Under the pieces are notes generated by a model. That model saw only the letters and a list, made by a program, of their open reading frames with translations, was not told the DNA's origin and did no database searches. Positions 1 through 53,448 of a stretch of 64,000 bases of DNA are shown here, piece by piece. Within the stretch, counting starts at the first letter, position 1. Each line of letters opens with the position of its first letter. Made by a program: the position numbers and the translations under genes. The stretch lies in the IMG/VR virus record IMGVR_UViG_3300022074_000002. One strand, 5' to 3'. This DNA comes from a virus.

Positions 1-2
1 AT

Positions 3-140
3 CCAGACGAGTCTTTTCTTAATCACTTGAATATTGGAGACCCCGATTCAAGTAATCACCGTAGGGGTTTTGGTTCACCAGATGAAATAGTAGACTGGTT
101 TAAACCTGATAGATCTGATGATTGGAGACAACGTGATTGA
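3..140 (+). CDS. 3' end of conserved cyanophage/cyanobacterial hypothetical protein (partial)
   Basis: Frame 3 reads PDESFLNHLNIGDPDSSNHRRGFGSPDEIVDWFKPDRSDDWRQRD* (TGA 138-140); not in ORF track; C-terminal DWRQRD recalled from a cyanophage family. Confidence 0.7.
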   Translation, partial: PDESFLNHLNIGDPDSSNHRRGFGSPDEIVDWFKPDRSDDWRQRD

Positions 141-409
141 TTAAACTTATAAAAGCATATTGTAAATTTACAATAGAGACCTTGGGAAACTTAGTAGATC
201 CACAGTGGTGGGCAACACTAATTCTAAAGAAGACAGGTTTGTTGAGACGTTGTGAGAAGGTAGGGGAGAAAGTTGAAAAATGGAAGTCAAAGTTCTCACC
301 AAGACAACGACTTTTTATAGAGGTTTTAATGTTTACATTAATTGCACTAGCATTTGAACCATTGTTAAATATGGTAGGTATGTCAATGTTACCATGGAGG
401 TGGTTTTGA
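137..409 (+). CDS. hypothetical membrane protein
   Basis: 90 aa, TTG start overlapping upstream stop, C-terminal hydrophobic segment. Confidence 0.55.
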   Translation: MIKLIKAYCKFTIETLGNLVDPQWWATLILKKTGLLRRCEKVGEKVEKWKSKFSPRQRLFIEVLMFTLIALAFEPLLNMVGMSMLPWRWF

Positions 410-413
410 TTAA

Positions 414-737
414 ATGACAGGATATGATTGGCATGTCATGAGAGACATACCCCCTGCTCATGGTAGTGGTAAAGAACCCATGTATGGAAGCATGGGTAAG
501 TCATGTAAACCAGATCCAAATGCTAAGAGGGAATACCCTTATTTGTATGCTGTCTTTTGTCTTGACTCACACAACACCAGTTACTTTTATATAAGAGAGG
601 ATGGTACGTGCTATTGGTTACATTCTCGTAAGAATAAGGATGACATCGAGGTAAATGCTGATATAATACAAATGGATATGTTTGGGGAACCTGATCTATC
701 TAAAGATTTTGTTATGAAAGCGTTGTTCTCAGTATAA
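414..737 (+). CDS. hypothetical protein
   Basis: 107-aa ORF tightly packed between neighbours. Confidence 0.6.
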   Translation: MTGYDWHVMRDIPPAHGSGKEPMYGSMGKSCKPDPNAKREYPYLYAVFCLDSHNTSYFYIREDGTCYWLHSRKNKDDIEVNADIIQMDMFGEPDLSKDFVMKALFSV

Positions 738-740
738 ATA
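733..740 (+). promoter_or_regulatory. T4-type late promoter TATAAATA
   Basis: Exact TATAAATA 5 nt before the PTOX ATG. Confidence 0.65.
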
Positions 741-745
741 CCTAT

Positions 746-1246
746 ATGAAACAAATAAACACATTCGTCTTAGATACTACAATCTATATCTTAGACTTCC
801 TCTACAGAGGTAGAGATTTTCAGAGGTTCTGGGTTCTTGAAGTGATTGCCAGAGCACCTTACTTTGCTTTTATCAGTGTGTTACATTTTCGTGAAAGTCT
901 TGGACTTCGAGGTGAAGAACATGTATACTTAATGAAGGAACATTTTTACCAAGCATTAAATGAAACAGAGCATCTGGAGGAAATGGAACTTAGGGAAGGC
1001 AATAAGCATTGGATCGACAGGTTTTTTGCCAAACATCTTGTTCTACTTTATTATTGGATCATGGTTGTTTACTATCTCGTTGATCCTATGGACGCTTACG
1101 ACATCAACATGAAGATTGAAAAGCATGCATATGAAACTTATGTTAAGTATGGTGCATATCACCCAGAAGATGCTAAAATACAAGAAATAGCATCAGATGA
1201 ATTAGAACACGCAAGAGAATTACAACATGCAATGACAATGATATGA
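746..1246 (+). CDS. ptoX: plastoquinol terminal oxidase (PTOX, alternative oxidase family)
   Basis: RFWVLEVIARAPYFAFISVLH, NETEHL and DELEHA di-iron ExxH motifs; short cyanophage form. Confidence 0.93.
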   Translation: MKQINTFVLDTTIYILDFLYRGRDFQRFWVLEVIARAPYFAFISVLHFRESLGLRGEEHVYLMKEHFYQALNETEHLEEMELREGNKHWIDRFFAKHLVLLYYWIMVVYYLVDPMDAYDINMKIEKHAYETYVKYGAYHPEDAKIQEIASDELEHARELQHAMTMI

Positions 1247-2611: not shown

Positions 2612-2872
2612 ATGAAATACCCAATCGGCAAAAGACATGTATTTGTAGACAGTGAACCTGTTAGAATGTATTTTATTAATGATATACCCTTTGCATTTGA
2701 TGGTTTAGAAAATTATCAGAAGCAAGACAAGTGGATTCTTACAGAATGTGCTATTAATCCAGAGTATACATTAGAAGATATTTTGAGATGGGGTGACTAC
2801 CTGATGGAAGAAGAATGTCATCCAGTTTTATTTGAATTAGATCTTCTTAATCGAGAAATTTTACCCGAATGA
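2612..2872 (+). CDS. conserved cyanophage hypothetical protein
   Basis: 86 aa acidic ORF directly after the promoter; ATGA overlap with cpeT. Confidence 0.7.
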   Translation: MKYPIGKRHVFVDSEPVRMYFINDIPFAFDGLENYQKQDKWILTECAINPEYTLEDILRWGDYLMEEECHPVLFELDLLNREILPE

Positions 2873-3387
2873 ATGAATTTACTGAATTGTTAGTGGGAAC
2901 GTTTGCCAATAAAAGACAAGCACAATCCCACCCTACTCGTTATGCACATATACGTGTCTCTCATCGTTTAATTGGTGGGAATCGCATTTATGGGGAGCAA
3001 GCATACAACTATCTTTTGAACAGACCCTACAGACAGTTCGTAATTGATGTTGTACAAGAAAATGAAGAATATCGTCTGAAGAATTATGAGATTATAAATC
3101 CTCTACAATTCGCAGAGTGTAAGAATATAGATAAAATTACTGATGATATATTAAAATATCGTGAAGGGTGTGATGTCATCATGAGAAAGACAGGTAATAA
3201 AATATTTTTTGGTGGAACATCTACCTGTGAGTGTTGGGTAACATGGAATGGTATAAAAACATATGTTCAGAATGAAGTTATGTTGAGTGAGACAGAGTAT
3301 CAGGTAACAGATAAAGGATTACATGCAGAGAGTCGTACTAAGGTATGGGGTTCTGACTACGGTGCGTTTAAGTTTGTGAGACAGTAA
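2869..3387 (+). CDS. cpeT: T-type phycobiliprotein (bilin) lyase, CpcT/CpeT family
   Basis: GTFANKRQAQSHPTRYAHIRV, YGEQAYNY..NRPYRQ, GCDV, WGS..GAFKF: CpeT/CpcT signature motifs. Confidence 0.92.
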   Translation: MNEFTELLVGTFANKRQAQSHPTRYAHIRVSHRLIGGNRIYGEQAYNYLLNRPYRQFVIDVVQENEEYRLKNYEIINPLQFAECKNIDKITDDILKYREGCDVIMRKTGNKIFFGGTSTCECWVTWNGIKTYVQNEVMLSETEYQVTDKGLHAESRTKVWGSDYGAFKFVRQ

Positions 3388-3388
3388 C

Positions 3389-3739
3389 ATGCCTATCAAA
3401 GACAAAGAGGAAAATCGAAAATATCAACGGGAGTGGGCAAGAAAAAATTCCAAGACAAAAAAAGTAAATCAAGTCGGTGCAAAAAGAAGGAAACAAATGG
3501 TTGATGATGCTAAATCACACCCGTGTGTCATTTGCAATAAAGATTATCCCGTAGAAGTTATGGATCTATATCATATAGATCAGTCAGAGAAAGCATCAAG
3601 TATATCTAAGTTGATGTGTATATCAAGTTATACTGCATTAAAAGAAGAGATAGATAAGTGTGCTCCTCTATGTGCAAACTGCCATAGATTATTGGATCAT
3701 GGATACGTACAACTACCAGAATTAATCGTAATTACATAA
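3389..3739 (+). CDS. HNH endonuclease (Zn-binding, free-standing)
   Basis: CVIC...DLYHID..EK...EEIDKCAPLCANCHR; basic N-terminal helix. Confidence 0.8.
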   Translation: MPIKDKEENRKYQREWARKNSKTKKVNQVGAKRRKQMVDDAKSHPCVICNKDYPVEVMDLYHIDQSEKASSISKLMCISSYTALKEEIDKCAPLCANCHRLLDHGYVQLPELIVIT

Positions 3740-3848: not shown

Positions 3849-6800
3849 ATGCCATTATCACGTTTGGATAACCTTATCAGCAGTAAGACTGGTAAGTATC
3901 TTTATGTTTCGCCTGATGATTTTAATGCAACCGATGCATTATCTAACAGAGGTAATTCACCAGTTGTACCATTTAAAAGCATACAGAGAGCATTTTTAGA
4001 AATTGCTAGGTATTCATATCTACCAGGATTTGGAAATGATAGGTTCGACCAATTCACTATAATGTTGATGCCTGGCATCCATTATATTGATAATAGACCT
4101 GGTTTAGTAGACACAAGTGGCGTTGATATATTTGGTTTTGATCAAGCAAACAATGCTTGGACAGATGACAGCATCCTAGATTTATCTAATTCTGATAACG
4201 TATACTATAAGTTTAATAACACTGAAGGTGGTGCCATTATTCCTCGTGGTTCATCACTCGTTGGTTATGATTTAAGAAGAACTGTTGTAAGACCTCTTTA
4301 TGTTCCTGATCCTGCTGTAACAGAAAGAGAGATTCCTCGTACTGCTATGTTCAATGTAACTGGTGGTTGTTATTTCTGGCAGTTTACTCTTAAAGATGGT
4401 CAAACAACATCTGAATCTCCTCTATATGATGCTGCAGCTGGAACTGGTAAAGTTTACTACGATCCATCTGACTTTACTAGATTAGCAGCACCTAACTATT
4501 CTCACCACAAACTAACAGTATTTGAATATGCAGATACAGATGAGTTAAATCTATTCTACAGAAAAATTGCTAAGGCATTCTCTGCATATCAACCAACTAT
4601 TGATGATCCTGGCGAATTTGATACAAGAGTACAAGAAAACAGAATTGTAGGTCCTCTATCTGACTCTAGAATTATTGAGAGTTTGACTCTTACTGATGCT
4701 ACAACTGATCCTAGTATTCCTGCATCTACTACAGAAGTAACAGTAACAACTAAAGTTGACCATGGATATTTCCAAGGACAGTTTGTTGCTATTGCAAACA
4801 CAGAAATTGATGACGTATTAGAAGGTATCTTCGAGATCAAAGAGATTGATCAGAACGACGCCCGTAAATTTAAATATCTAGTTCCATTTGTAACAAGTGG
4901 AATTGGTAGTAATATTGTGTCTGGACAGACTGTAAGTGTTGACACAACACCAGCACTTGGACAGAATGCACAGGCATTAGCAGAAGTTGACTCAGTTGAA
5001 TCTGCATCACCATATGTCTTTAACGTATCAATCAGATCTACATGGGGTATTTGTGGTATCTGGGCAAATGGTTTGAAAGCCACTGGTTTCAAATCAATGG
5101 TTATCGCTCAGTACACTGGTGTATCTCTACAGAAAGATGATAGAGCATTCATTAGATACGACGAGTATACAAACACATGGAACCAAGCATCACTTGTAGA
5201 CGCATTTGCTACAGTTCCATATCATACAAAAGGTGACGCATACTATAAAGATGAGTGGAGAAACTTCCACGTTAGAGCATCTGAAGATTCATTCATTCAG
5301 TGTGTTAGTATCTTTGCTGTTGGTTTTGCTGATCACTTCTTGATGGAGTCAGGTGGTGACATGTCAATCACCAACTCTAACTCTAACTTTGGTAACACAT
5401 CCTTACATGCTATTGGTTTCAAAGGATTTGCATTCAACCAAGATAAGGGTGGATTCATCACAGATATTATTCCTCCTAAGACAGTTGTTGATAATACTGC
5501 CAGCACTAAAAAGATTTCCTATTATACTATTGATATACAAGGAACATTATCTACATCACAGAACTATACTAAATTATTCCTCGGCAACGAAGATATTGTA
5601 GATCCATTAGTCAGACCAGCAGCAACAATTGATGGTTATAGATTAGGTGCTAAGTCTGATGACAAATTATATGTTAAGTTAGATCCAGCACCTGGCACAG
5701 ATGAGTTCTTCAATGCATCACTAGAACCAACTGGTTTTGTTAAGTACATTGCAAAAGGATCTATTCTTAATCCTAGTGGTGGTGTAGTCAACAGTGTATA
5801 TGCTGATGCTGCTAACTTGATTGAAAGCAACAGACGCATGATCCAAGAAGAAGTATTTGGATATATTCTAGAAAAATATCCTAGACTTCAGAATATTCCT
5901 TATGTTAATCCTGGTTTAGATCCTGCTGGTAACAGATACTTTGATGCTCGTAACTTGATTGCAGCAAACAGACAGTATATTGTTGACACAGCATTTGATG
6001 ACATGATCAGAACTTATGGATCAGCAGTGATTCAAGGTATTGGTGATGGTAAGTGCAAGAGAGATATTGGTTTAGTTGTTGATGCTGTTGCAGAAGATTT
6101 AAGAGATGGTGGTAACGCAAACGTTATTGCAGCAACAAGAGAATACTTTGATGGTGATGGTAACCCACTAACTAATGGTCTAGTTGGTGAGGAGGACTAT
6201 GCAACCTACGCATTCCGTAGAGCAAGAGATCTATGTAAACTTGCTATTGCTAACTTACTACCAAACAAAGCAGATTTATATGATCCTGATCCTAACAGTA
6301 ACCTTGCACCATATGGTATTAATGTTGGTAAGACAGGTTCACAGGCAGAACTAGATGGTGACACAACAAATGGTGTTACTATTGACTTAGCACTTAAAGC
6401 AGATCCAGCATCCCGTTATAAAGACGCCCGTAACAGAATCGTTGCTAACAAAGATTTCATTCTTGATGCAGCAGTCGCAGAGATATCTGTATATCATCCT
6501 GACTTCTATCATCCTACTGATACACAGACAAACTCACAGTCAAGACTTGCTGATGCATTCCGTCTAATCAGAAGAAACTCATCTGAGATTAGAGATAAGG
6601 CACTTGCTCAGATTGCTGTTGATCATCCTAACTTCTATATTGATGGAGACAACCAGACTGATGAAGGATCAAGATACGCATCTGCATATCGTTTGATTTC
6701 AAAGAACAGAGATCAGATTGTTGACACAGCACTAGCAGAAACAACTGTACAACATCCAGACTATTATTTTGTTGGTGACCAAGCAACAGATGCACGTTCG

Positions 6801-9800
6801 AGATATGCTGACGGTTATCGTTTAATTGTACAGAACAGAGTAGAGATTGTAAACACAGCATGGAATGATACATTTGCACAGTATCCAAACCACGGACAGT
6901 ACGAAGCAAAATGTAAGCGTGACCTAGACATCTTCATAGAAGCAATAGGTTTAGACTTATTTGTTGGTGGTAATAAGTATGCACGTAAGTTTATCTCAGA
7001 ATATTTCAATGCTGCTGGTACTACATGGATCATTGGTGGTCTACAGGGTGAAGAAGCAGAAAGTGTATTTGCATTCAACAAAGCAAGAGACTACATGAAA
7101 CTTGCTGTAGCTAACCAGTTGAGTATACAAGATCTTAGTGTTACACCAGGTCCTGCACAGTATGGTGGAGGTGGTGGAGACATTCCTAACAACCAGTCTG
7201 GTGCATGCGATGATGTACAGTCTGCTATCGTTACTTTGACTGATATTGTTACTGCACAAATTACTGCTGGTAATCTATCTGGTCTTCCTTCAGAGACATC
7301 ATATATCTCAGGACCTGGCGAAGAGAAATGTCGTAGAGATATTGGTATCTTTGTTGACTCAGTTGCACTTGACTTATTCTGTAAGGGTAATGTTTACTCA
7401 CATAGATTTGCAGCAGAGTTCTTTACTGATAATACAACACCTGAGTTCTCATTCAACTCAGCAGTATACAACACGAACTTCAATAAAGCTCGTGACATGA
7501 TCAAGAAGGCAATAACTAACCAGTTATACTTCAAAGACAATGGTACACAAGGAGCGATTGATAGAACTGCAGACAATGCACCTGGCTCAGCATACGGTCA
7601 GGTATCTAGAGATTACACACCACATGGTGCTGCATATACTGCATCTACTGGTGATATGGTTCTTGATATTGCCAACCATGATTTAAGTACAGGAGACTAT
7701 ATTAAGATTGCAGATAACTCATTGACATTTACATGTTCAATGGATAACAATGCAACCAACCACACATATCCTCGTACAACCGACCCAGTATCTGGACAGT
7801 ATATCGAAATTACTTCATCTACAGCAGATACTATTACAGTCAATGTTGGTGCATCACCTATTGTAGAGTTCACACCAACCACAGGAACAACATATGATCC
7901 TAATACAGGATTGATGGTTCTTGAAATCGGTGCTCATAACTTGACTGCTGGTACAAATGTTAAGTTAAAAGAGGAATCATTAGTATTCAGTTGTGGATTT
8001 GGTGGTGCTACTGGTGCTGCTGCTGAGAAAGCATATCCTAGATCAAATGGTAATGACCCATTCTTCAATACTTCAATTGCAATTCAGTCAGTAACTGCTA
8101 CAACAATTACTCTCCAAGTATTAACAACTGTTCCTTCCACAAACACTGATCCACATACATTTGTATCTGCAACCACTGGTGCAGTTGAGAGTGGTGGTAA
8201 CTATGCACATACATTTGTGAGTGCTACATCTAACGCAGTCAACTTTGGTGGTAACACTGAGAATGAATTGATTGATGCACAATCAGCATTATGTTCTGAT
8301 GTACAAGCTGCAACTGATACACTAACAGGTATTGTTACTACAATTCTTGCTAATGGTAACCTTAGCACCATGCCAATAGAAGTTAACTATGGTACTGGTA
8401 GAGGACCTGGCGAAGTCAAGTGTGCTCGTGACTTAGGATACTTCATTGATGCTATTTCCGTTGACATGTATCACGAAGGTAACAAACATACCAGAGAATA
8501 CACAGAACAATACTTTACCAATGCAAGTACACCATTGCCAAATGGTCTACAGGGTGAAGAGTCAGAAAGTATAACTGCATATAATACTGCTATTGGTGAG
8601 ATGAAGAAAGCAATCACCAACCAGTTATACTACAAAGATCTAACAGTTACAGAAGGTGGATCTACTTATGCTGGATCAACTACTGACGTAGGAACTCCTA
8701 CTAACGTGACATATGATGCAACAACTGGAACTCTAGTAACAACTATTACAGGTCACGGACTTGCTAACGGAGATAAGATTAAGTTCTTAGAAAATTCATT
8801 GACACTATCATGTACAATGGATGGTAATACTGCTAACAAAACATATCCAAGACCAACTGATCCAACATTCAACACATGGTTGACTGTTGCAAATAAAACT
8901 AATGATACATTTGAAGTTAACGTAGGTACATCACCTCTAGTAACATACACACCAACTACAGGAACAACATATGATCCTAACACAGGACTAATGGTTCTTG
9001 AGATTGGTGCTCATGATTTAACTGCTGGTACATCTATTAAGTTAGCACCTAACTCATTAACATTCAGTTGTGGATATAACGGTGCTACAGGTGCTGCTGC
9101 AGAGAAATCATATCCTAGATCAAATGGTAATGACCCATTTTATAATACTGCAATTAACATTGAGTCAGTAACTGGAACTACAATTACACTTCAAGTATTA
9201 ACAACTGTTCCATCTACAAACACTGATCCACATACATTTGTATCAGCAACAGCTGGAGCAGTTATCGCTGGTGGTAACTACGCCCACACATTTGTATCTG
9301 CAACAGCAAACGCAGTTAGAAAACAGAACTCAGCAATTACAAGCAGAACAAGTTCAAGTGCATGTTCAGATGTACAGTCTGCTATTGACACACTAGGAAC
9401 TATCGTTACCGATGCTATCGCTGCTGGTAATATCACAGGTGGTATCTGGAATAACGCTGCCAATCCTGGCACACTGATACCTGGCGAAGCTAAGTGTCGT
9501 AGAGACTTGGGTATTGTAGTTGAGGCAGTTGCACAAGATCTTTGGTTTGGTGGTAACGAGTTTACTATCGCTGCAACTAAGGAATACTTCAAGGGTAACC
9601 AACTCATTGCTAACGGTGTTGACAATGAGGTTGCACCATCAGTTACTGCATTCAAACGTGCAGAAGATTTGATGCAACGTGCATTGAACAATCAATACTA
9701 TGATCGTGATCTAAACATTACACTTGACACTATTGGTGATCCTCCTATTGTTGGAGACATTGAGTGTGATGCACATGACATGGTTATATCTAATCAACTC

Positions 9801-12800
9801 TTTATTGCTAAGGAAGCATATGAGAGAATGAGAGCAGCATATCCATCATACACACCATCTACAGGAAATACAGCACAAGATTGCTTAGATGACATCTATG
9901 ATGTGTTACGTGATGTAATGTGGGATGTTAAGTTTGGTGGTAACTATAAGACATATTCTATTGCTAAAGGTTACATCACTAATGACTTTAATGGTAAGAC
10001 ATATCCACAGATCATTCAAGATGTAGAAAGAGACGAGGTAGCAAAGGTATTCCAAGAAGTTAAGAATGTTGCAATGCAAGTTATCAAGAATGAAACAGTC
10101 ACTGTTTCTGCTGGTAACGATCTAACACAAATCATTGACAATACAATCGTAGACGACTGGGATGATGAGGAACTATTACCTAAGTGTGGTTCAGCAGTCG
10201 CTGCTGTTGACTCATTGATGGACATCATCATCGGAGCAATCGGAACTGATGCTGGCGTTGGTAATCTTAATGGTATACAAAGGACAACTGCTGATGGTGC
10301 AGATCCTGGTTGGAACACAGCACTCAACATACTATCTGCAACTGCAACATCAATTACAATTAACGTTGGTGCATCACCAGCGGGCGAACAATACGCCCAT
10401 ACATTTGTTGCTGCACAGTCAGGTGCAGTCATATCTGGTGGTAACTATGATCATAAGTTTGTAAGTGCTACAACTGGTGCAGTCAATGTTGTTAACGGTG
10501 CACAAATAACACCAACCAACGCAACATATGATGCAACAAGTGGACTATTGGTAATGTACTTTGGATTTGCTCATGGCGTAACTACAGGTGATTCACTATC
10601 ATTAGATGATAACTCACTCACATTCTCATGTGGAATGGATCAGTATGGAACTACTAAGACATATCCTAGAGCAAGTGACCCAGTACAGGGACAGAATGTA
10701 AACCCAACTGCTGTTACAACTTATAGTATTACAATTAACGTTGGCACATCACCATTAGTTGAGCATAACGTATCAAATGCTGTATATGATCAAACAAGTG
10801 GACAACTTGCATTGACTATAGGTAACCATAGTCTAGCATCTGGTACATCAATTAAATTGAAGGAAGAGTCACTCATCTTTACATGTACTAAAGATCAGAA
10901 CAAGACATCACATGCATATCCAAGATCTGCTGGTAAGTATCAACCATCCACATATCAGGATGGTAACTGCTCTGATGTTTGTGCAACAGTCAATGCTTTA
11001 CTTGACATCCTTTGCAACTCTATTAATGATGGTAATTTAGATGCTCTACCTCCACTAAACAATGGTGAATGGGATTGTGCTAACGTTCGTAGTTCTATTG
11101 AGGTTCTATTTGATATTCTCAATGACGCAATCACTGACGGGACACTTGCTGGTCTACCCGTACTCAACACAGGTGACTTTACAATCAATAACGAAGCATC
11201 CAAGTGTTTCCGTGATGTCACATACATCGTTGATGCTGTTGTTAATGACCTTAGACTTGGTGGTAACTTAAACAGTATACAGGCTGGTGAAGCATATTAT
11301 GTTGGTAACAATCTAGAATACATTGATGGGGAGAAGACAGAAACACTAGACGCATGGGATTACGTTGGACAGATGGCAACTGCTGCCATGAGAAACTTCG
11401 ATGTTCTAGCATATAATTGTTCAACTAACTCTGGTTCTGCAATTGTAGATGTTAACGATACTCGTGGTATTATCATAGGTATGAGTGTTGTTGAATACAC
11501 TGCTGGATCTTATCGTGATGGAGACAATGCACCTGGCTTACTAGGTAACAGTCCAACTCCAGTTTACACAACAATACCACAAGGAACATATGTCAAGAGA
11601 ATTGTAAGTAACACACAAGTTGAACTTGGTGTCAATGGTTCTAGATTGACTGAGGGTGTGACTGTAAACGCACTACAGAATAGCACAACAATTGATCTAT
11701 ACTTTGTATATGAAAATGGTATCTGGGCAGACACATTACCAACAACTGTGACTGTAGGTCCTGAGTCAGAAGGTCCTGAAGTTATTGCTGATACAACCAC
11801 ATCACCATCAAGTAGAGAGTGTGCAGGAACAGCAAACGCCATTGAAACATTAGTCGGTAACATCACTACTATTATTAACAGTGGTCTTGGCACAGTCACT
11901 AGACAAGAACAAACAGTCAACACTGCACTGTTATCATCTAGAGCAACACTATTCACAATTGACGTTGCTGGTACAGGTCCTTCAAACCCACATAACTTTG
12001 AGACTGGAACTCCCGTAAGATTAGTTCCAAGACCCCGTTTCGATCAAGTAACTGGTAAGTATGTTGATGTTGACAAGCGTCTTGTTAGACTACCAAATGG
12101 ATTTGAAACTAACAGAACATATTATGTAATCGCACCAGGCAGAGTTACACAACCAGAAAACTATGGTGCAACAACACTATTCAATGGTAGTGATCAGACT
12201 AGATTGATGCTTGCAACATCCAAAGAAAATGCTGCTGCTGGTATCTACATCTATGCATCTGAGACAGATAGTATAGACAAGGATGTTGAGATTGATCTTT
12301 ATCAATTCGTTCTTGATGACAAGTATGATCTACACAACTACAGTGCAGAGTTAACAAATACAGTCAACGCTGGTATTATGACCAACGTTTCACATATATT
12401 TGACGTACCAAATGCAGGAACAACTCCACAGAAAGCATTCATCAGAGCAGTAGAAGGTGGTGTACTACCTCTAGTTTCTACAACTTATGCAAATGATTCA
12501 TCTGTTGCAGTTACTGATCCACAAAATTCTGCTATCGGTAGAATTAATCCTAACGTTGAGTTCTTCACTCGTTACCAGAACAGTAAGGTAATCACATTAC
12601 ACAAGTCACATGCTGATGCTATTAACAATGTAAATCCAATTACATTTGCATCTGGTCAGAGTGGAACTAAGTTTGATGTATTTGCTAACAAACGTCGTTC
12701 ACCAATGAAGTTTGATCCTGGCTTTACTGACGCTACCGCAACAAGTGGTAAATGGTACATTCAATGTAGGGATGAAGTTACTGGACAACCAGATAACGTC

Positions 12801-15800
12801 AAGAAAAATAATATATTCTGGAGAATTAAGGAGTCAGACTACGCAGACAGACAAAGATCCACTGACATGTGGTATCAGCGTCTAGAAGACAATCGTATTG
12901 CTGATGAGAGAACATACAAACTTCGTATGGTTATTCCTAGTTACTTACAGAACGCTAGAGATCCTATCAATGGATTTGTTATTAAGACTAGAACTGACGA
13001 CACACGTAAGTTAGTACCACAGAAGATCCTACTAAAACCAGTTGTTGGTAGTGTATATGGTGCTAGATTCCAGAACCCAGTTGATGCTGGTGAATTTATT
13101 GGTGATACATCTGGATCATACGATCCATACAGAAGAGACACAACAGGTGCTGGTATTGAATACAGAGCATTTGCTAAGTTCACATCTGGTATCCAAGCAA
13201 CAATCGAGTCTGGACGTAAAGTTAAGGACATATTAGATGACAGCATTGAATACTTAGAACTAACACTATTTGATCATGGTGTCGATACTAAGAACTTCCC
13301 TGGCTTAAGAAACGAGACATTTACTACAGTTAAGATCACATCACCACAGGGTGGTAACTTCGTAACAAGCAAAGTAAATAATCTTGCATCATCTACCAAC
13401 GCAGTTTCATTTGCTGGTAACTCATCAGGTCTTGCAAATATCCATGCTTACTACACCATAAATGGTGAGCATTATATTATCATCAAGAATATTCGTGGTG
13501 GTGATCTAGTTTATAGTGAGTACGCCAATACAAGATTTACTCAAGGCACAGTCTTTGCTGACATGCTAGAGGATCAGGATATGGGCAAATCACTACCTCT
13601 TAAGACCCAAATTGCAAAAAATAATCCCCAGTTTTTCTACAAGCAAAACGGTGCGAACGTTTACACAATCACACCTGGCGACAGAATACAAGATGACGCT
13701 GGTGTAGAATACTATGTTGATAGTGTTGATGATGTTGGTGTTATTGAAGATACATTCTATATCTTCGGATATGAGACATTACAACAACGTATCTCAGGTC
13801 AGCAGGATGGTATTTACTATCTAACTGCACTACGTGGTAATATCTCACCATTCCCAACTGGTGCTGGTGTAACTAACAACTTTAAGAAGTTTAAGTTCTC
13901 ACAACCAGTCGGTAAACTATATCCTCTAAACTATAGAAACGATCCTCTTTGGTTCAACAACTCTGGTACAACACAGAAAGAGAAAGATTACTATGCTGGA
14001 TTAATTGATCCACCACAAGCATACTCTGCTGCTGATAACTATGTACATGGTGCTGTTACAGTCAACGATTTCAAAGGATCAACAACCAGAGAAATGGTTG
14101 CAGACTTGACAGAACAACCAGCGTTTATCGAAAGATCATATACAATTGAAGCACAAAGTGGTAACGCTGCATCAGGATCTGAACAAAGAAAGATACCGAT
14201 TGGTGGTAATGGTGCTGTATCAATAACAGATACGAAATACTACGTCGAACTTAGACGACCATCTATCGCAAGAGCAGGAAACCACACATTTGAATACCTC
14301 GGTTTCGGTCCAGGTAACTACAGTACTGGTTTACCAGCAAGACAAGAAGTTGTACTCACACCAGACGAAGACTTCTACGCACAGTCCAAGAAACAAGACG
14401 GTGGTATTGTATTCTACACTGGTATCAACTCACAAGGTGACTTGTATATTGGTAACAGAAGAATCAATGCTATCACTGGTGAAGAGACATTCATAGACAG
14501 GGCAACACTTGTAGATGATGGAGATGAGGATGATACACTAGGAGGATTAGTTACTACCTTCGATACTCCTGTAACATTCAACCAGAATATTACAGTTGTT
14601 GGTGGTGACGGTGAATTGGTGAACACATTTGAATCACCTATCACCATTGCTGTTCAAGATTCTGATCTTACACAGGCACGTGATGCTTTGATCATTCGTT
14701 CAAATGTCACATCTGTTGATCCAGTTACACAACTAGAACAGGATGAAGGACTAGACAGAACTTCATTCTCACCTCCAACTGAGGGTGACATCAGAATTAG
14801 TAAGAACACAATTAAATCTGCTGTATTCCAGTTTAATGCTAGAGGTAATGGTCAGGGATACTTATTCCAGACACATACTGTAGCGGGTGTTGCTTCTAAC
14901 ATCACACCTAATCAATCTCCATTGATTGCAAACGGCGGATCTAGAATAAACGCAGGACAGTTTGTAAATTATGGTGGTGTATTAGCAAAAACAGGCGATG
15001 TATTACTTAAGGGATCTGAAATAGGTAAGAGTGGTTCTCTTGGTTGGATCCTCGCTAACTACTTTGCACAGATTGCTAACAATAGTATTGACAATATTGT
15101 GTTTGATGGATCAAACGTTGTTAAATTAGAGTTCAGAGACTTTAATAGTGGCGTTGCTCTTACTAACCAAGAGATTGGAATTACATCTAGTTCACAGATT
15201 AGAATTAAGAACTTCTACTATGATCCTAGATTAAATCTAACATGGCAGATATATGCTGCTAAACCTGGCGATCCATTCTCACCAACAAATAACTACTGTC
15301 ATTTCCAAGTTATTGATCAGATTCCACAGGCAACACAACCATGGGAGACAATCATTGCTGGAACTGCTGTAGGAGCGACAGCACCTACCATTGAGTTCTC
15401 TAACTCTAACTTCAAGGAAGTTGGTGTATTAGGTGGTGAAGCATTAAGAACAGAGACAGAAACTATTGGTGATTACAAGTTAGGTATTAACACAGTCGCA
15501 AGAGCACCACACAGTGCATATGAAAATGCGTTTGTTGATAACCTTACAACAGATCCACGTGCTAACTTAGATGTTGTTGGTACAGCATTCATCAGTGGTA
15601 GAACAACTGCTGACTTCTTACAGCATACACAGTTTGCTGATCGTGATAAGACTGCTGTTGACAATGCATTATTAGTTGGTGGAGATAGTTCTGCTCCTAA
15701 TGACATATCAGTATTCAGAATAGCAACTACAAACAGTGGTCGTGTTGGTATCAATGTAAGTAATGCTAACCTAGACAGAGCTCTGGTTGTAGCAGGAACA

Positions 15801-18800
15801 TCAAGATTCACTGCTGATGCTAGATTTGAGCATGACATCGAAGTTAATGGCGATGGTGTAATTGCTGAGATCAGAACATCACAGACAACAGGAACATTTA
15901 ACCTAGTCGATGATACTACATTCGTTGGTACATTAAACATAGGTAGTCAGGTTACAACTGCTAATCTATTCAATGATAGCACTGCAGATCAGTTCATATA
16001 TGTTGGTGGTTCATCTGCACACAGTAACCTATGGTTAGGTGCAACACCTGACAGTGCTGGCACTAGCATTTCTAAGGTAGAAATTGGTGGTGCATATGCT
16101 AACACTAACGAAGACTTATCATACACCAAGATCAAGACTAGAAACTTGAGAGTTGATGGTGATATGTGGTTAGGATTCCGCAGAGCAAGTGGTGATACTG
16201 TTGAACTTAAGTCTCAAGCATCACAGGTTGATTTCTTCTCCAACTCTGGAGGACCTTCAATCATTAACTTTGCTACTAACGCATCTGAAATTAATGTCGC
16301 TGGTCAGGGTGGTAAGACTACTATCAATAACCAGTTAGAAGTTATTGCATCTGCTAAGTTTAATGGTGATGTCCATCTTTGTGGTGGTGTTGCATCATTC
16401 GCATTTACTGGTGGAAGAGCACAGTTAGGAACAGATATAGTTTCACATGAAGATGGTATTATATCACAGGCATTATTCAATAAGAACGTTGACATCTTAA
16501 ATGTACTCGTAAAACAGACAAACGAAGAAGGATACAACCAAGTTGATACTGCTGGTGCAGGACAATGGGGTGGAGCATCATATCAGAACTCAATCAATAC
16601 TGGTGGAGCAGTTGAACCAATTATATTATCTGGTCTATCTGGCGATGAGTACTACTTACCACTTAAGTTTGCTCCAGTCAAAGCAAATGGCGATCCATAC
16701 TTTGGAACTAACGACTATATCATAGTTGATAGTGCTACTGTTGGTGCAGGATCATCTGCAACCAGTCATCCAGAGATTCTACAAGTTGTAGAACTTACAA
16801 GAATAAGTGAAGCACCTTACTACATCAAAGTCAAGCGTCAACCATTTGGTGCATTTGGTGGTGTATTAAGTAATCACGTTGATACTACACCAATATACAA
16901 GGTTAACGTACAGTTTGATGCTACATGGACAGAGCAAGCACTTGACAATGATACCAGTGCAACTGATAGTGTATACTTATCTGAGTTTGGTGGTAATCTA
17001 ACAAGCAATGATTACATCATTGTTGACAGAGATGATTCACCAAAAGTTCCAGAATATATCAAGGTTATTACATCATTAGATCAGCAAGTACAGAAGTTTA
17101 GAGTTTCTAATTGTGCTGACCCAGACTTAGATGTATTTGAAGTTAACTCTGTAACAGGTGAGGTACAAATTGGTAACCCAGCCGTACCTGGTTCTATTGT
17201 TACAATCAATTCATCACTCAATATGTCTGGTGGATGTGGTACTCTCAGTGATATTTCATTCTTAGGTGATGCTGCTGCTGGATCAAATGTAATTACTAAC
17301 GTATCAATTACAACTTCTGGTAAGACAATCAATGATATTAAGAAGGGCGATGTTCTATCTGTCGTTACAGATTCATCACCACTCTTTTTACTACAAGATA
17401 CTGCTGTTGACTTTGTATTTGGTGGTGCTATTTACTTAACATCCAATATTATTGGAGCACAGTCAGTAACTGGAACTACATTCAGAGCAAGCAGGAACGA
17501 AAGACTGACTACAACTGATGGTGGACTCAACACTACATTTGATGTTGATACATGCTCAGGAACAACAACAATCGGAACACATGCTGGTAGATTTGATGTC
17601 AACTTAGCATGGTCTAGCAGTGGTAGTATTCTTACAAATGCTGATCTACCAACAGCATTGAATGCATCAGAGATAATCACATATGGTTACTACGCAGATC
17701 CACAGTCAATACAGGGTAATGGTCCTAATACAACTATTATATCAACTGCTGCTGGTAACAGTGCATCTGTTTTACAGATTGCAGTTCAATCTCTTGGAGA
17801 AGGAACTGGTAAGTTTGCGATAGGAGACTTAATTGCTGTAGGACCTCTAGCATCATTCACAGGTGTAACTGGTCAGATTGAATTTATGACAATCACTGAT
17901 GTTGTAGATGGAACGAATACAATCGTTGCAACTAGAGCACAGGAAGGAACAGTCAACATGAGTCACAGTGCTGCTGATGTTGTTAGAAGAGTTATCAAAC
18001 ATGAGACACAATCTCTCGTAACTGATGCTCAGATCAGACAAAGATTAGTTGCTGGTGTAAGTAATGATTATCTCTCTGTAATACTAGAGAGAGGATATAT
18101 CTCACAATCTAAACTGGACTACAAACAGTGGTTAAGATTTAGAAATACAACTACTGGTGTTGAAATTCTTGGAATTGTAACTGGTAGATTATATGGTAAG
18201 ACTCATACATCAGTGATGAATGAGCAAGTTGGTGATGGTGCTAAGTCATATAGAGAGGGTAGTCTAAATGTCACAGATAACCTAACACTAGCGGGTGGTA
18301 ACTTTGTAATTTACGATAGTGTTAAACAGACAAAACTATTCCACTTTGTTAATGATGACGGACATGCTGATCACCAAGGTCTATTATATTGGGATGCTGG
18401 TGTACTTGCTAGAGGAGACTTCTTCTTATATCCATCATCCTGCCCAGAAAACGTTCTCCTAACATTAAATTGCACACCATCATTCTCAGTTGACAACTTA
18501 GGTAACGTAACTGCTAAGACAACTCTAACAGTCACAGGTGTATCATCAGCATCACCAACAGAGTCAGATGTATTCTCAGTACAGAATCTAGGTATAAATG
18601 GTGGTAGTGAATACACTATCAAACAAGATCGTTCGATTGATGCATTCGGATTAACAAACTTCACTACATCAAGTGGTGCAAGACATACAAGATACTTATC
18701 CGCAGCGTCACCAGAAGCAGATCTATCATTGATTGCAAATATAATATACATGGTCAATGTTCAGAATACACAAACATTAATTGTTACACTACCAGCAGCA

Positions 18801-19079
18801 CCACAAACAGGTGATGTTGTAAGAATGATTGATGTAGGTGGTAACTTGAAGTATGACACAACATTAGTTATCAGAACTCCTGAGACTAGTGGAACACCAA
18901 TACAAGGTGACTCAACAGGAACACTATTTGGAGATAGATTAACTCCATATCCATCTGGTGAACTTGTAGTTCAGACTCCTAACGCAGGATTCGCATTAGT
19001 ATATCTTGGTGCAACCGATAGTAATGATCAAATAGGCATCCCAACCAGCGTACAAGGTTGGTGGTTAATGGAGGTATAA
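3849..19079 (+). CDS. giant virion structural / tail-fibre-like protein (5076 aa) with seven phycobiliprotein-like helical domains and beta-rich modules
   Basis: N-terminus MPLSRLDN..YLYVSPDDFNATD..NRGNS...PFKSIQRA typical of cyanomyovirus giant structural proteins; C-terminal VTLPAAPQTGDVVRMID..GWWLME baseplate-attachment-like motif; late promoter. Confidence 0.85.
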   Translation: MPLSRLDNLISSKTGKYLYVSPDDFNATDALSNRGNSPVVPFKSIQRAFLEIARYSYLPGFGNDRFDQFTIMLMPGIHYIDNRPGLVDTSGVDIFGFDQANNAWTDDSILDLSNSDNVYYKFNNTEGGAIIPRGSSLVGYDLRRTVVRPLYVPDPAVTEREIPRTAMFNVTGGCYFWQFTLKDGQTTSESPLYDAAAGTGKVYYDPSDFTRLAAPNYSHHKLTVFEYADTDELNLFYRKIAKAFSAYQPTIDDPGEFDTRVQENRIVGPLSDSRIIESLTLTDATTDPSIPASTTEVTVTTKVDHGYFQGQFVAIANTEIDDVLEGIFEIKEIDQNDARKFKYLVPFVTSGIGSNIVSGQTVSVDTTPALGQNAQALAEVDSVESASPYVFNVSIRSTWGICGIWANGLKATGFKSMVIAQYTGVSLQKDDRAFIRYDEYTNTWNQASLVDAFATVPYHTKGDAYYKDEWRNFHVRASEDSFIQCVSIFAVGFADHFLMESGGDMSITNSNSNFGNTSLHAIGFKGFAFNQDKGGFITDIIPPKTVVDNTASTKKISYYTIDIQGTLSTSQNYTKLFLGNEDIVDPLVRPAATIDGYRLGAKSDDKLYVKLDPAPGTDEFFNASLEPTGFVKYIAKGSILNPSGGVVNSVYADAANLIESNRRMIQEEVFGYILEKYPRLQNIPYVNPGLDPAGNRYFDARNLIAANRQYIVDTAFDDMIRTYGSAVIQGIGDGKCKRDIGLVVDAVAEDLRDGGNANVIAATREYFDGDGNPLTNGLVGEEDYATYAFRRARDLCKLAIANLLPNKADLYDPDPNSNLAPYGINVGKTGSQAELDGDTTNGVTIDLALKADPASRYKDARNRIVANKDFILDAAVAEISVYHPDFYHPTDTQTNSQSRLADAFRLIRRNSSEIRDKALAQIAVDHPNFYIDGDNQTDEGSRYASAYRLISKNRDQIVDTALAETTVQHPDYYFVGDQATDARSRYADGYRLIVQNRVEIVNTAWNDTFAQYPNHGQYEAKCKRDLDIFIEAIGLDLFVGGNKYARKFISEYFNAAGTTWIIGGLQGEEAESVFAFNKARDYMKLAVANQLSIQDLSVTPGPAQYGGGGGDIPNNQSGACDDVQSAIVTLTDIVTAQITAGNLSGLPSETSYISGPGEEKCRRDIGIFVDSVALDLFCKGNVYSHRFAAEFFTDNTTPEFSFNSAVYNTNFNKARDMIKKAITNQLYFKDNGTQGAIDRTADNAPGSAYGQVSRDYTPHGAAYTASTGDMVLDIANHDLSTGDYIKIADNSLTFTCSMDNNATNHTYPRTTDPVSGQYIEITSSTADTITVNVGASPIVEFTPTTGTTYDPNTGLMVLEIGAHNLTAGTNVKLKEESLVFSCGFGGATGAAAEKAYPRSNGNDPFFNTSIAIQSVTATTITLQVLTTVPSTNTDPHTFVSATTGAVESGGNYAHTFVSATSNAVNFGGNTENELIDAQSALCSDVQAATDTLTGIVTTILANGNLSTMPIEVNYGTGRGPGEVKCARDLGYFIDAISVDMYHEGNKHTREYTEQYFTNASTPLPNGLQGEESESITAYNTAIGEMKKAITNQLYYKDLTVTEGGSTYAGSTTDVGTPTNVTYDATTGTLVTTITGHGLANGDKIKFLENSLTLSCTMDGNTANKTYPRPTDPTFNTWLTVANKTNDTFEVNVGTSPLVTYTPTTGTTYDPNTGLMVLEIGAHDLTAGTSIKLAPNSLTFSCGYNGATGAAAEKSYPRSNGNDPFYNTAINIESVTGTTITLQVLTTVPSTNTDPHTFVSATAGAVIAGGNYAHTFVSATANAVRKQNSAITSRTSSSACSDVQSAIDTLGTIVTDAIAAGNITGGIWNNAANPGTLIPGEAKCRRDLGIVVEAVAQDLWFGGNEFTIAATKEYFKGNQLIANGVDNEVAPSVTAFKRAEDLMQRALNNQYYDRDLNITLDTIGDPPIVGDIECDAHDMVISNQLFIAKEAYERMRAAYPSYTPSTGNTAQDCLDDIYDVLRDVMWDVKFGGNYKTYSIAKGYITNDFNGKTYPQIIQDVERDEVAKVFQEVKNVAMQVIKNETVTVSAGNDLTQIIDNTIVDDWDDEELLPKCGSAVAAVDSLMDIIIGAIGTDAGVGNLNGIQRTTADGADPGWNTALNILSATATSITINVGASPAGEQYAHTFVAAQSGAVISGGNYDHKFVSATTGAVNVVNGAQITPTNATYDATSGLLVMYFGFAHGVTTGDSLSLDDNSLTFSCGMDQYGTTKTYPRASDPVQGQNVNPTAVTTYSITINVGTSPLVEHNVSNAVYDQTSGQLALTIGNHSLASGTSIKLKEESLIFTCTKDQNKTSHAYPRSAGKYQPSTYQDGNCSDVCATVNALLDILCNSINDGNLDALPPLNNGEWDCANVRSSIEVLFDILNDAITDGTLAGLPVLNTGDFTINNEASKCFRDVTYIVDAVVNDLRLGGNLNSIQAGEAYYVGNNLEYIDGEKTETLDAWDYVGQMATAAMRNFDVLAYNCSTNSGSAIVDVNDTRGIIIGMSVVEYTAGSYRDGDNAPGLLGNSPTPVYTTIPQGTYVKRIVSNTQVELGVNGSRLTEGVTVNALQNSTTIDLYFVYENGIWADTLPTTVTVGPESEGPEVIADTTTSPSSRECAGTANAIETLVGNITTIINSGLGTVTRQEQTVNTALLSSRATLFTIDVAGTGPSNPHNFETGTPVRLVPRPRFDQVTGKYVDVDKRLVRLPNGFETNRTYYVIAPGRVTQPENYGATTLFNGSDQTRLMLATSKENAAAGIYIYASETDSIDKDVEIDLYQFVLDDKYDLHNYSAELTNTVNAGIMTNVSHIFDVPNAGTTPQKAFIRAVEGGVLPLVSTTYANDSSVAVTDPQNSAIGRINPNVEFFTRYQNSKVITLHKSHADAINNVNPITFASGQSGTKFDVFANKRRSPMKFDPGFTDATATSGKWYIQCRDEVTGQPDNVKKNNIFWRIKESDYADRQRSTDMWYQRLEDNRIADERTYKLRMVIPSYLQNARDPINGFVIKTRTDDTRKLVPQKILLKPVVGSVYGARFQNPVDAGEFIGDTSGSYDPYRRDTTGAGIEYRAFAKFTSGIQATIESGRKVKDILDDSIEYLELTLFDHGVDTKNFPGLRNETFTTVKITSPQGGNFVTSKVNNLASSTNAVSFAGNSSGLANIHAYYTINGEHYIIIKNIRGGDLVYSEYANTRFTQGTVFADMLEDQDMGKSLPLKTQIAKNNPQFFYKQNGANVYTITPGDRIQDDAGVEYYVDSVDDVGVIEDTFYIFGYETLQQRISGQQDGIYYLTALRGNISPFPTGAGVTNNFKKFKFSQPVGKLYPLNYRNDPLWFNNSGTTQKEKDYYAGLIDPPQAYSAADNYVHGAVTVNDFKGSTTREMVADLTEQPAFIERSYTIEAQSGNAASGSEQRKIPIGGNGAVSITDTKYYVELRRPSIARAGNHTFEYLGFGPGNYSTGLPARQEVVLTPDEDFYAQSKKQDGGIVFYTGINSQGDLYIGNRRINAITGEETFIDRATLVDDGDEDDTLGGLVTTFDTPVTFNQNITVVGGDGELVNTFESPITIAVQDSDLTQARDALIIRSNVTSVDPVTQLEQDEGLDRTSFSPPTEGDIRISKNTIKSAVFQFNARGNGQGYLFQTHTVAGVASNITPNQSPLIANGGSRINAGQFVNYGGVLAKTGDVLLKGSEIGKSGSLGWILANYFAQIANNSIDNIVFDGSNVVKLEFRDFNSGVALTNQEIGITSSSQIRIKNFYYDPRLNLTWQIYAAKPGDPFSPTNNYCHFQVIDQIPQATQPWETIIAGTAVGATAPTIEFSNSNFKEVGVLGGEALRTETETIGDYKLGINTVARAPHSAYENAFVDNLTTDPRANLDVVGTAFISGRTTADFLQHTQFADRDKTAVDNALLVGGDSSAPNDISVFRIATTNSGRVGINVSNANLDRALVVAGTSRFTADARFEHDIEVNGDGVIAEIRTSQTTGTFNLVDDTTFVGTLNIGSQVTTANLFNDSTADQFIYVGGSSAHSNLWLGATPDSAGTSISKVEIGGAYANTNEDLSYTKIKTRNLRVDGDMWLGFRRASGDTVELKSQASQVDFFSNSGGPSIINFATNASEINVAGQGGKTTINNQLEVIASAKFNGDVHLCGGVASFAFTGGRAQLGTDIVSHEDGIISQALFNKNVDILNVLVKQTNEEGYNQVDTAGAGQWGGASYQNSINTGGAVEPIILSGLSGDEYYLPLKFAPVKANGDPYFGTNDYIIVDSATVGAGSSATSHPEILQVVELTRISEAPYYIKVKRQPFGAFGGVLSNHVDTTPIYKVNVQFDATWTEQALDNDTSATDSVYLSEFGGNLTSNDYIIVDRDDSPKVPEYIKVITSLDQQVQKFRVSNCADPDLDVFEVNSVTGEVQIGNPAVPGSIVTINSSLNMSGGCGTLSDISFLGDAAAGSNVITNVSITTSGKTINDIKKGDVLSVVTDSSPLFLLQDTAVDFVFGGAIYLTSNIIGAQSVTGTTFRASRNERLTTTDGGLNTTFDVDTCSGTTTIGTHAGRFDVNLAWSSSGSILTNADLPTALNASEIITYGYYADPQSIQGNGPNTTIISTAAGNSASVLQIAVQSLGEGTGKFAIGDLIAVGPLASFTGVTGQIEFMTITDVVDGTNTIVATRAQEGTVNMSHSAADVVRRVIKHETQSLVTDAQIRQRLVAGVSNDYLSVILERGYISQSKLDYKQWLRFRNTTTGVEILGIVTGRLYGKTHTSVMNEQVGDGAKSYREGSLNVTDNLTLAGGNFVIYDSVKQTKLFHFVNDDGHADHQGLLYWDAGVLARGDFFLYPSSCPENVLLTLNCTPSFSVDNLGNVTAKTTLTVTGVSSASPTESDVFSVQNLGINGGSEYTIKQDRSIDAFGLTNFTTSSGARHTRYLSAASPEADLSLIANIIYMVNVQNTQTLIVTLPAAPQTGDVVRMIDVGGNLKYDTTLVIRTPETSGTPIQGDSTGTLFGDRLTPYPSGELVVQTPNAGFALVYLGATDSNDQIGIPTSVQGWWLMEV
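6414..6929 (+). repeat. four tandem 129-nt (43-aa) repeats
   Basis: Arg codons of RYKDA, RLADA, RYASA, RYADG at 6414, 6543, 6672, 6801. Confidence 0.85.
7329..9494 (+). repeat. ~1.08-kb intragenic tandem duplication
   Basis: 7871-8240 and 8948-9317 are near-identical at DNA level (offset 1077); KCxRD Cys codons at 7329, 8421, 9495. Confidence 0.85.
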
Positions 19080-40168: not shown

Positions 40169-40561
40169 ATGCCAGAAGTCTCAACCTTCAAAGATTTGAG
40201 TATTACATTCAAAAAACATCCTGTTACTAACGATTTGGTAACAGTGAAGGATAAGGCTGCTGTTGCACAATCAATAAAAGGATTATTACTTACTAGAAGA
40301 GGTGAAAGACCATTCCAACCAGAAATAGGAAGTGGTCTACAGGATCTATTGTTTGAACCATTAGATTATGGTACTGCTGGATTAATTAAAAAAGAAATTA
40401 AAGAAACTCTCAATAGGTACGAACCTAGAATATCAATTCAAGGACTTAACTGCTATCCACGAACTGACGAGAATGGATATGAAGTGCAATTAGAGTATAT
40501 GATCTTAGGTAGAGAAGACAGAGCAGTTGGGATAGATATATTTCTAGAGCGTACACGATAA
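40169..40561 (+). CDS. gp25: baseplate wedge subunit gp25
   Basis: FKDLS..F..HPVTND..AV.QSIK.LLLT..GERPFQP.IGS..L..LLFEP..YEPRI. Confidence 0.93.
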   Translation: MPEVSTFKDLSITFKKHPVTNDLVTVKDKAAVAQSIKGLLLTRRGERPFQPEIGSGLQDLLFEPLDYGTAGLIKKEIKETLNRYEPRISIQGLNCYPRTDENGYEVQLEYMILGREDRAVGIDIFLERTR

Positions 40562-42357: not shown

Positions 42358-42361
42358 GTAA

Positions 42362-53392: not shown

Positions 53393-53407
53393 ATAAACGT
53401 ATAAATA
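53388..53407 (+). promoter_or_regulatory. tandem late promoters
   Basis: TATAAATA at 53388 and 53400. Confidence 0.8.
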
Positions 53408-53448
53408 ACTCAGGCACTTAATACAATAACGTCGGAACAGGAAAAACA

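Follow-up and report, generated by a model that had tools for sequence, protein, structure and literature searches.

We describe a giant protein of a cyanophage in which one helical fold appears to be inserted repeatedly into copies of itself. The protein is encoded in a 64,000-nucleotide stretch of viral DNA (IMG/VR record IMGVR_UViG_3300022074_000002, hereafter the window). The source is a T4-like cyanomyovirus without a close sequenced relative; at the DNA level, its best match reaches 81% over 300 bases. The open reading frame (ORF) of interest runs in a single frame on the + strand from window position 3849 to 19079 and encodes 5,076 amino acids (aa). Residues 651-2690 very probably comprise seven phycobiliprotein-like domains (D1 to D7), five of which are discontinuous, with the arrangement D1[D2[D3[D4[D5[D6]]][D7]]].

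A prior reading of this region that was made from the letters alone (the original prediction) had assigned 21 helices to it and proposed that they form nested domains. All 21 helix coordinates lie in frame 0 of the one ORF and coincide with the first residues of three motif types: AB (RYxDAxxLIxxNRxxIVxxA...YP), E (KCxRDxGxxVDAxxxDLxxGGN), and H (CxDVxxAIxxLxxIVxxxIxxGNL). Profile hidden Markov models (HMMs) built from these copies recovered, across the whole protein, the exact count that had been given (7 AB, 7 E, and 7 H), and the rest was noise. The next-best matches outside the 21 have independent E-values (i-E-values) of 0.12-0.16 and negative scores, and HMMs iterated on homologues again returned 7/7/7 in the giant protein. 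The motifs are ordered AB AB E AB AB AB AB E H E H E H E AB E H H H E H, which is a balanced bracket string. When parsed with the grammar D -> AB S E S H, this string yields exactly the tree originally proposed (D1>D2>D3>D4>D5>D6), and D3 receives D7 as a second insert. Likewise, the insertions fall in B-E or G-H loops as claimed: D2, D4, D5, and D6 occupy B-E loops of their hosts, and D3, as well as D7 together with a beta module, occupy a G-H loop. D6 and D7 are contiguous, and the other five domains are discontinuous in the bracket parse. Balanced orderings make up 7,752 of the 399,072,960 orderings of 7+7+7 tokens (2e-5). A random token order is a weak null, however, and the comparison with homologues is the real test. 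No DNA-level repeats were found by Tandem Repeats Finder in window positions 5700-12000, and therefore the domain copies are old.

As judged from structural models, the repeated unit is a phycobiliprotein-like globin fold composed of helices A, B, E, F, G, and H without the X-Y hairpin. We folded aa 897-1875 of the giant protein with AlphaFold2 using a 16-sequence alignment (predicted local distance difference test, pLDDT, 77; predicted template modelling score, pTM, 0.54). In this window model, D6 has the globin-like core of helices A, B, E, F, G, and H. It aligns with phycobiliprotein beta chains at a Z-score of 16.8 with a root mean square deviation (rmsd) of 2.0-2.3 Å over 130-137 aa (chain residues 32-176), and with ApcE (4xxi_A) at Z 14.1. 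Ordinary globins reach Z 11 at most against the same model. The N-terminal X-Y hairpin, through which phycobiliproteins build the alpha-beta monomer, is absent from the domains, which begin at helix A, and the structural matches begin at chain residue 32-34.

Profile comparisons point to the same family. A profile of 21 contiguous domains, drawn from the window and metagenomic relatives, was searched against the PDB. Its best match was a phycobiliprotein (E 1.7e-5). Matches up to E 10 numbered 146, and the 60 of them that were listed are all phycobiliproteins. The resulting alignment places helices A-B on phycobiliprotein residues 34-63 and the Cys of KCxRD on the bilin-binding Cys82 of CpcA, CpcB, and CpeB. 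At this Cys82-type site, Cys and Asp are present in all seven domains of the window protein and Arg in six of them (D7 has DCLDD). A second invariant Cys stands at the start of helix H, and its equivalence to beta-153 comes only via a second, non-significant stretch of alignment. Linear domain searches had been expected to miss nested domains, and this holds for the most part. Precomputed Pfam annotations of nested relatives give a 'faint' match to PF00502 (Phycobilisome protein) or none. In the window protein, however, the contiguous AB-E stretches of two domains do receive a score, although below threshold (D6, 15.9 bits; D7, 16.3 bits; curated cut-off, 22.2), and the 2,067-aa nest region passes as a sum (41.5 bits, E 1.7e-10), with no single stretch passing.

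We then examined homologues from 77 metagenomic viral loci and three phage records, in which every long ORF was scanned with the three HMMs. Eight orthologues carry the identical balanced 21-token string, with E-to-H beta inserts of about 100 to 835 residues. Moreover, a tandem run of k AB motifs is always closed by k E..H units, where k is 2 (L025, L055, L078, L079, and ACG-2014i), 3 (L024, L028, and L054), or 4 (the window and L021). Locus L031 has a different tree that balances with one undetected closing (final) H. On a larger scale, a search of 1.84 billion proteins with the domain profile gave 1,430 representatives at E<=1e-3, most of them 1,000-8,000 residues long, with up to 36 matched stretches. 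Equal AB, E, and H counts occur in 20 of the 150 best representatives of the family, clustered at 50% identity, and 19 of these 20 are strictly balanced, with depths of 1-6. Unbalanced homologues, which had been named in advance as evidence against nesting, are not what the coupling at k = 2-4 and these 19 representatives reveal.

These data also bear on whether the motifs might be generic amphipathic helices onto which a parse was forced. Each motif spans only about 30-60 aa, and the copies listed in the original prediction served to train the first HMMs. Nevertheless, the motifs are kept in the 1,430 representative proteins, align to specific phycobiliprotein helices including the one that carries Cys82, never occur outside the nest region of the 5,076-aa protein, and form a string that has the low odds given above under random order. 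The likelihood of such an artefact is practically nil, and we regard this explanation as refuted for practical purposes.

Two relatives show further variations. In L017 (IMGVR_UViG_3300006565_000008), a single phycobiliprotein-like domain at ORF aa 3262-4410 is interrupted twice, by beta repeats of about 650 residues in the B-E loop and by about 300 residues in the G-H loop; therefore, B-E and G-H loops also take unrelated inserts. In L082 (positions 4001-14794, protein P0023), six domains are nested six deep, and the protein ends in Mtd_N and Peptidase_S74 (an intramolecular chaperone). This pair of domains is typical of trimeric fibres and spikes.

The relationship between the two ends of the nest can be traced in the L073 family. 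In its first domain, only 37 residues separate AB675 from E712, versus about 1,760 residues between the AB and E motifs of D1 in the window protein. Each D1 piece is the best match of its L073 counterpart (AB, 78 vs 39 for the next best; E, 263 vs 131; H at L073 aa 1543, 42 vs 30). Because AB675 and E712 are adjacent and each D1 piece is matched best, we take AB651 and E2453 of the window protein to be parts of one ancestral domain, as the sequence comparison indicates. The L073 nest is located in the G-H region of D1 instead. Locus L021 has a contiguous first domain with a D1-like E helix, followed by a compact 4-nest; the AB and H motifs of that first domain match other levels better. A permutation test of co-descent (mirror-tree) provides moderate support for the nested pairing, which ranks 35 of 5,040 for AB versus E; the order of D3 to D6 is not separated by this test. 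Finally, a complex prediction that paired the D1 AB hairpin with its E..H segment scored 0.38, compared with 0.10 for the best control, and weakly supports D1 closure. At least 20% of the contacts agree between runs, and the partner pLDDT is at least 38. Of 80 solved complexes, 58 attained the 0.38 mark, as did 2 of 110 mismatched pairs, although the range at <=0.60 holds only 7 of the 80 and both mismatches. This pass may also reflect memory of solved phycobiliproteins.

Structure prediction for a relative also bears on domain closure. The three-level nest of L054 is 41% identical to the D4-D6 region of the window protein, and it was chosen over the L021 4-nest and the L017 split domain because none of its levels is contiguous (the innermost carries an insert too). 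It was folded with AlphaFold2 (pLDDT 76, pTM 0.63) and compared with known structures by an exhaustive structural search. The middle level (model residues 42..729) aligns with phycoerythrin beta 5aqd_M at Z 15.9 and rmsd 2.1 Å over 142 aa, and nearly the same range (43..730) aligns with ApcE 4xxi_A at Z 14.2 and rmsd 2.0 Å over 117 aa. The outer level (1..871) aligns with allophycocyanin 8or7_A (Z 13.9, rmsd 2.1 Å, 125 aa) and the inner level (87..580) with 9fb1_A (Z 9.1, rmsd 3.8 Å, 136 aa). In each case, the alignment runs from an AB hairpin to the H helix with which the bracket parse pairs it. In the window model, the D4 bracket (residues 1..966) aligns weakly with haemoglobin 8wix_B (Z 7.1, rmsd 4.0 Å, 139 aa), which is below the Z of roughly 13 that we consider a safe level for helical folds. 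D5 closure was not seen in the exhaustive structural search with this model, in which every phycobiliprotein chain aligns best to the contiguous D6 and the outer levels are hidden.

A second look at matches ranked by Foldseek gave a similar picture for the window model, where the 50 matches listed all fall on D6. For L054, this ranking missed the phycobiliproteins, and only flavohaemoglobins (Z 4.8-5.7) appear among the matches listed. An apparent likeness of the whole 979-residue model to Cry and Vip3 toxins (Foldseek, template modelling score 0.07) was dismissed as meaningless; only the local D6 matches are real.

The helices could in principle pack locally instead, with the AB hairpins forming a helical rod of their own and each adjacent H-E-F-G run forming a four-helix unit, so that the brackets would be coincidental. 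The short spacing of only about 15-20 residues between H(i+1) and E(i), the exact 43-aa period of four AB hairpins, and the fact that nearly all structural matches of the window model fall on contiguous D6 are all compatible with this arrangement. However, it leaves unexplained why the copy numbers of AB and E..H agree (at each k from 2 to 4, and in 19 of the 20 equal-count representatives) and why the AB and E of D1 are adjacent in L073. It also conflicts with the L054 model, in which whole phycobiliprotein chains align at rmsd 2.1 Å across 688 and 871 residues, and an AB hairpin alone or an E-H segment alone is only part of the D6 fold. We therefore consider local packing highly improbable. 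Packing restricted to sequence neighbours, which had been named as grounds for abandoning the proposal, did not occur in the L054 model or, more weakly, in D4. The claim that discontinuous domains fold across the nest draws on the copy-number coupling, the adjacent D1 helices of L073, the L054 model, and, weakly, D4 in the window model. Recursive insertion of the same fold over several levels is present both in the grammar, as read in the window and its homologues, and in the L054 model.

The same models help to judge a different possibility, in which the AB hairpin of one chain completes the E..H segment of a neighbouring chain. Tail fibres are usually trimers, the relative P0023 carries the Peptidase_S74 chaperone domain, and balanced counts fit swapping between chains equally well as nesting. 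Against this stand the monomer predictions, which close domains within one chain, and the linkers of 13-20 residues at every junction, which suit simple loop insertion. In addition, contiguous members (D6, D7, P-HM2 gp7, and L030) show that domains fold alone. Domain swapping between chains is accordingly quite improbable, if somewhat less so than local packing.

Several observations weigh against nesting within a single chain as laid out above. One of the 20 equal-count representatives is unbalanced, and many distant homologues look unbalanced to the HMMs. We attribute the latter to H helices that have probably diverged; missing H helices were found by eye in L073 only. The rest of the 150 representatives are probably fragments or carry helices that have diverged beyond the reach of the HMMs. 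In the co-descent test, the nested pairing ranks 206 for AB-H and 249 for E-H of 5,040, and the best permutation is not nested. The window's own model reveals only D6 (strongly) and D4 (weakly). Furthermore, the pairings were read from where the structural alignments start and end rather than from contacts. The folding also relied on shallow alignments of 15-16 sequences, and AlphaFold2 may impose the phycobiliprotein fold, which is already known to it. Closure of D1, D2, D3, and D5 in the window protein would follow from homology and from the grammar.

The nest can be followed along the + strand as a series of segments, whose helices were placed by HMM matches. Helices A-B of D1, the outermost opening bracket, lie at window positions 5799..5900 (aa 651-684) and are orthologous to AB675 of L073. 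D2 begins with helices A-B at 5934..6035 (aa 696-729) and continues with helices E-F-G at 6036..6257 (aa 730-803, with Cys736). In its G-H loop, D3 opens with helices A-B at 6414..6515 (aa 856-889). The A-B helices of D4 follow at 6540..6623 (aa 898-925; AlphaFold2 helices at model residues 2-13 and 15-29, pLDDT 74-88), and then those of D5 at 6666..6752 (aa 940-968; model residues 44-56 and 58-72, pLDDT 87-90). The innermost domain, D6, is contiguous through helices A, B, E, F, G, and H at 6795..7268 (aa 983-1140; model residues 85-243).

The closing segments follow in reverse order. D5 continues with helices E-F-G at 7314..7514 (aa 1156-1222, Cys1161; AlphaFold2 helices 260-282, 286-293, and 308-326), carries a beta-domain insert in its G-H loop at 7608..8246 (aa 1254-1466, all-beta in the model), and ends with helix H at 8277..8354 (aa 1477-1502, Cys1482; AlphaFold2 helix 587-606). 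D4 has the same layout, with helices E-F-G at 8406..8615 (aa 1520-1589, Cys1525; AlphaFold2 helices 624-646, 650-657, and 675-693), a G-H loop insert at 8679..9326 (aa 1611-1826, also all-beta in the model), and helix H at 9354..9425 (aa 1836-1859, Cys1839; AlphaFold2 helix 940-963). Helices E-F-G of D3 are at 9477..9698 (aa 1877-1950, Cys1883). Its G-H loop holds the contiguous and divergent D7 at 9762..10277 (aa 1972-2143; DCLDD in place of KCxRD), and then a beta-repeat insert at 10296..10943 (aa 2150-2365) that was assigned from sequence only and has the repeat type of the D4 and D5 inserts. Helix H of D3 at 10959..11066 (aa 2371-2406, Cys2374) is followed directly by helix H of D2 at 11067..11174 (aa 2407-2442, Cys2410). 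D1 is completed by helices E-F-G at 11187..11408 (aa 2447-2520, Cys2453), which are orthologous to E712 of L073, a putative beta insert in the G-H loop at 11421..11798 (aa 2525-2650), likewise read from the sequence and collinear with L073 aa 780-860, and helix H at 11811..11918 (aa 2655-2690, Cys2658). This last helix, the outermost closing bracket, is the best match of the H-like helix at aa 1543 of L073. The G-H inserts of D4 and D5 weakly resemble a phage endosialidase beta-barrel and the Uba1 FCCH domain (Z 7.1-7.5 overall and 7.3-7.5 for the D5 insert), and the L054 insert also gives matches of the endosialidase and Uba1 FCCH type (Z 7.6-8.1).

We propose that the chain would leave an N-terminal module of 650 residues, lay down the AB hairpin of D1, the AB hairpin of D2, and helices E-F-G of D2, and then lay down the AB hairpins of D3 to D6. 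After completing D6, the returning chain would complete D5, D4, D3 (which hosts D7), D2, and D1, such that six AB hairpins on the way out would be matched by six E-F-G...H segments on the way back. The return segments of D5, D4, D3, and D1 would take up beta-barrel modules in their G-H loops. D1 would be both entry and exit for all 2,040 residues of the tree, making the nest a single topological plug-in between conserved N-terminal (650 residues) and C-terminal (2,380 residues) parts. With the tree rooted in D1, the flanking fibre parts would stay adjacent at any number of levels, and both levels and beta modules could be gained or lost without moving them. Such a plug-in topology agrees with how freely depth and insert size differ from one homologue to the next. 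The nest could serve as an evolvable display or extension module of the fibre, and its domains may be arranged in three dimensions as a rod, as a knob, or as a platform that displays the beta modules. With regard to the 'hairpin stack' that had been put forward, the there-and-back chain topology stands, but the geometry of a stack is not carried by the models (pTM 0.54-0.63).

The giant protein itself is a virion protein associated with the fibre or baseplate. Its N- and C-terminal parts match PHROG 4527 ('short tail fiber') at E=0, and homologues in 378 phage records are labelled short tail fiber, tail protein, virion structural protein, or gp7 (in P-HM2). Genes 3' of it are fibre-like and encode a 435-aa protein of short-tail-fibre type, a protein of tail-collar type, a 1,340-aa virion protein, and a fibre assembly chaperone. 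Identity with gp7 was rejected on finding a separate gp6-gp7-gp8 baseplate module at window positions 40561-55263. This module, together with the PHROG 4527 match, the homologue labels, and the fibre-like downstream genes, leads us to assign a virion protein of fibre or baseplate type rather than gp7. We have not filed the protein as T4 gp12, a name that would rest on the PHROG 4527 label and record annotations only. A Pfam search with the N- and C-terminal thirds of the protein gave no family match.

Three other loci of the window deserve mention. The gp7-type baseplate protein of 3,676 aa (42362-53392, + strand) is a second virion protein in which motifs of this family recur, arranged as AB E AB E (tokens at 49160, 49283, 49853, and 49991). 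Its H helices are below the HMM threshold, and judged by its motifs it looks like a second, shallower nest. A 2,700-aa ORF downstream of gp8 (55323-63425, + strand) matches PHROG 358, whose family label is function-less, and the P-HM2 gene at the equivalent position is annotated VrlC. An HNH endonuclease gene (3389-3739, + strand; PHROG 3106, E 1e-29) lies between the cpeT-like and giant genes, and the equivalent place in S-WAM2 is occupied by two HNH genes and several tRNA genes.

The cpeT-like gene raises a separate question about pigment. It encodes a candidate bilin lyase of the T type (window 2869-3387, + strand; PHROG 488, E 7e-40) and lies 460 bases upstream of the giant gene; the order of cpeT followed by a giant fibre gene is annotated in S-WAM2 and ACG-2014i as well. 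Both candidate cysteines (the Cys82-type residue and the one at the helix H start) are present in all seven domains, giving 14 candidate sites per chain. Light-dependent adsorption has been reported for some cyanomyoviruses, P-HM2 among them (PMC6628666). We regard it as rather unlikely that the nest is not only the first helical case of deep self-recursive insertion but also a pigment-carrying, light-responsive part of the virion. This pigment reading is distinct from the nesting and is more speculative, with the invariant cysteines, the upstream cpeT-like gene, and the light-dependent adsorption of P-HM2 as its basis. If true, fibre-attached bilins could underlie the light-dependent adsorption of some cyanomyoviruses.

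Recursive self-insertion has so far been described for a small beta motif of RNA polymerase, and the nest extends it to a helical fold of 150 residues at equal depth. The nest also constitutes an evolvable module of phage virion proteins that make up a large family (1,430 representative clusters), in which depth and inserts vary among close relatives. Annotation and structure-prediction pipelines that assume contiguous domains overlook most nested domains, and because of this assumption, thousands of residues in cyanophage giant proteins are unannotated. Now that exact domain boundaries are defined for stitched constructs, the fold, the pairing of segments, and possible bilin binding become testable.

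Among known systems, phycobiliprotein beta subunits (CpcB, CpeB, and the cryptophyte beta subunit) and the bilin-binding domain of ApcE share the core of helices A, B, E, F, G, and H with the nest, and ApcE has a loop insertion between helices B and E. Phycobiliproteins are free alpha-beta subunits, whereas the nest domains are covalently chained inside a 5,076-aa structural protein and lack the X-Y hairpin. In the open-access literature, we found no report of phycobiliprotein-like domains in phage virion or structural proteins. A there-and-back hairpin topology, with outer domains built from N- and C-terminal segments, is familiar from flagellin (D0-D1-D2-D3) and GroEL (equatorial-intermediate-apical). 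In those proteins, however, nested domains of unlike folds reach a depth of 3-4, whereas in the phage nest one fold hosts itself to a depth of six.

The only close precedent that we found is the Si3 insertion of RpoC2, the beta' subunit of cyanobacterial RNA polymerase. Si3 comprises eight sandwich-barrel hybrid motif domains, four of which are assembled from distant chain segments, in a six-level recursive nested insertion with forks (PMC10895346, PMC13114784). Both systems show self-insertion of one fold, a depth of six, a fork, a there-and-back path, and one entry and exit through a host loop. Si3 belongs to a cellular enzyme and is built from an all-beta fold about 80 residues long, whereas the phage nest is built from a helical domain of about 150 residues in a virion protein. 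Unlike Si3, the nest carries unrelated beta modules on its levels and varies in depth from 2 to 6 or more among close relatives. Structures of Si3 have been solved, whereas that of the phage nest is predicted only. The nest is thus a new helical, virion-borne form of recursive domain insertion.

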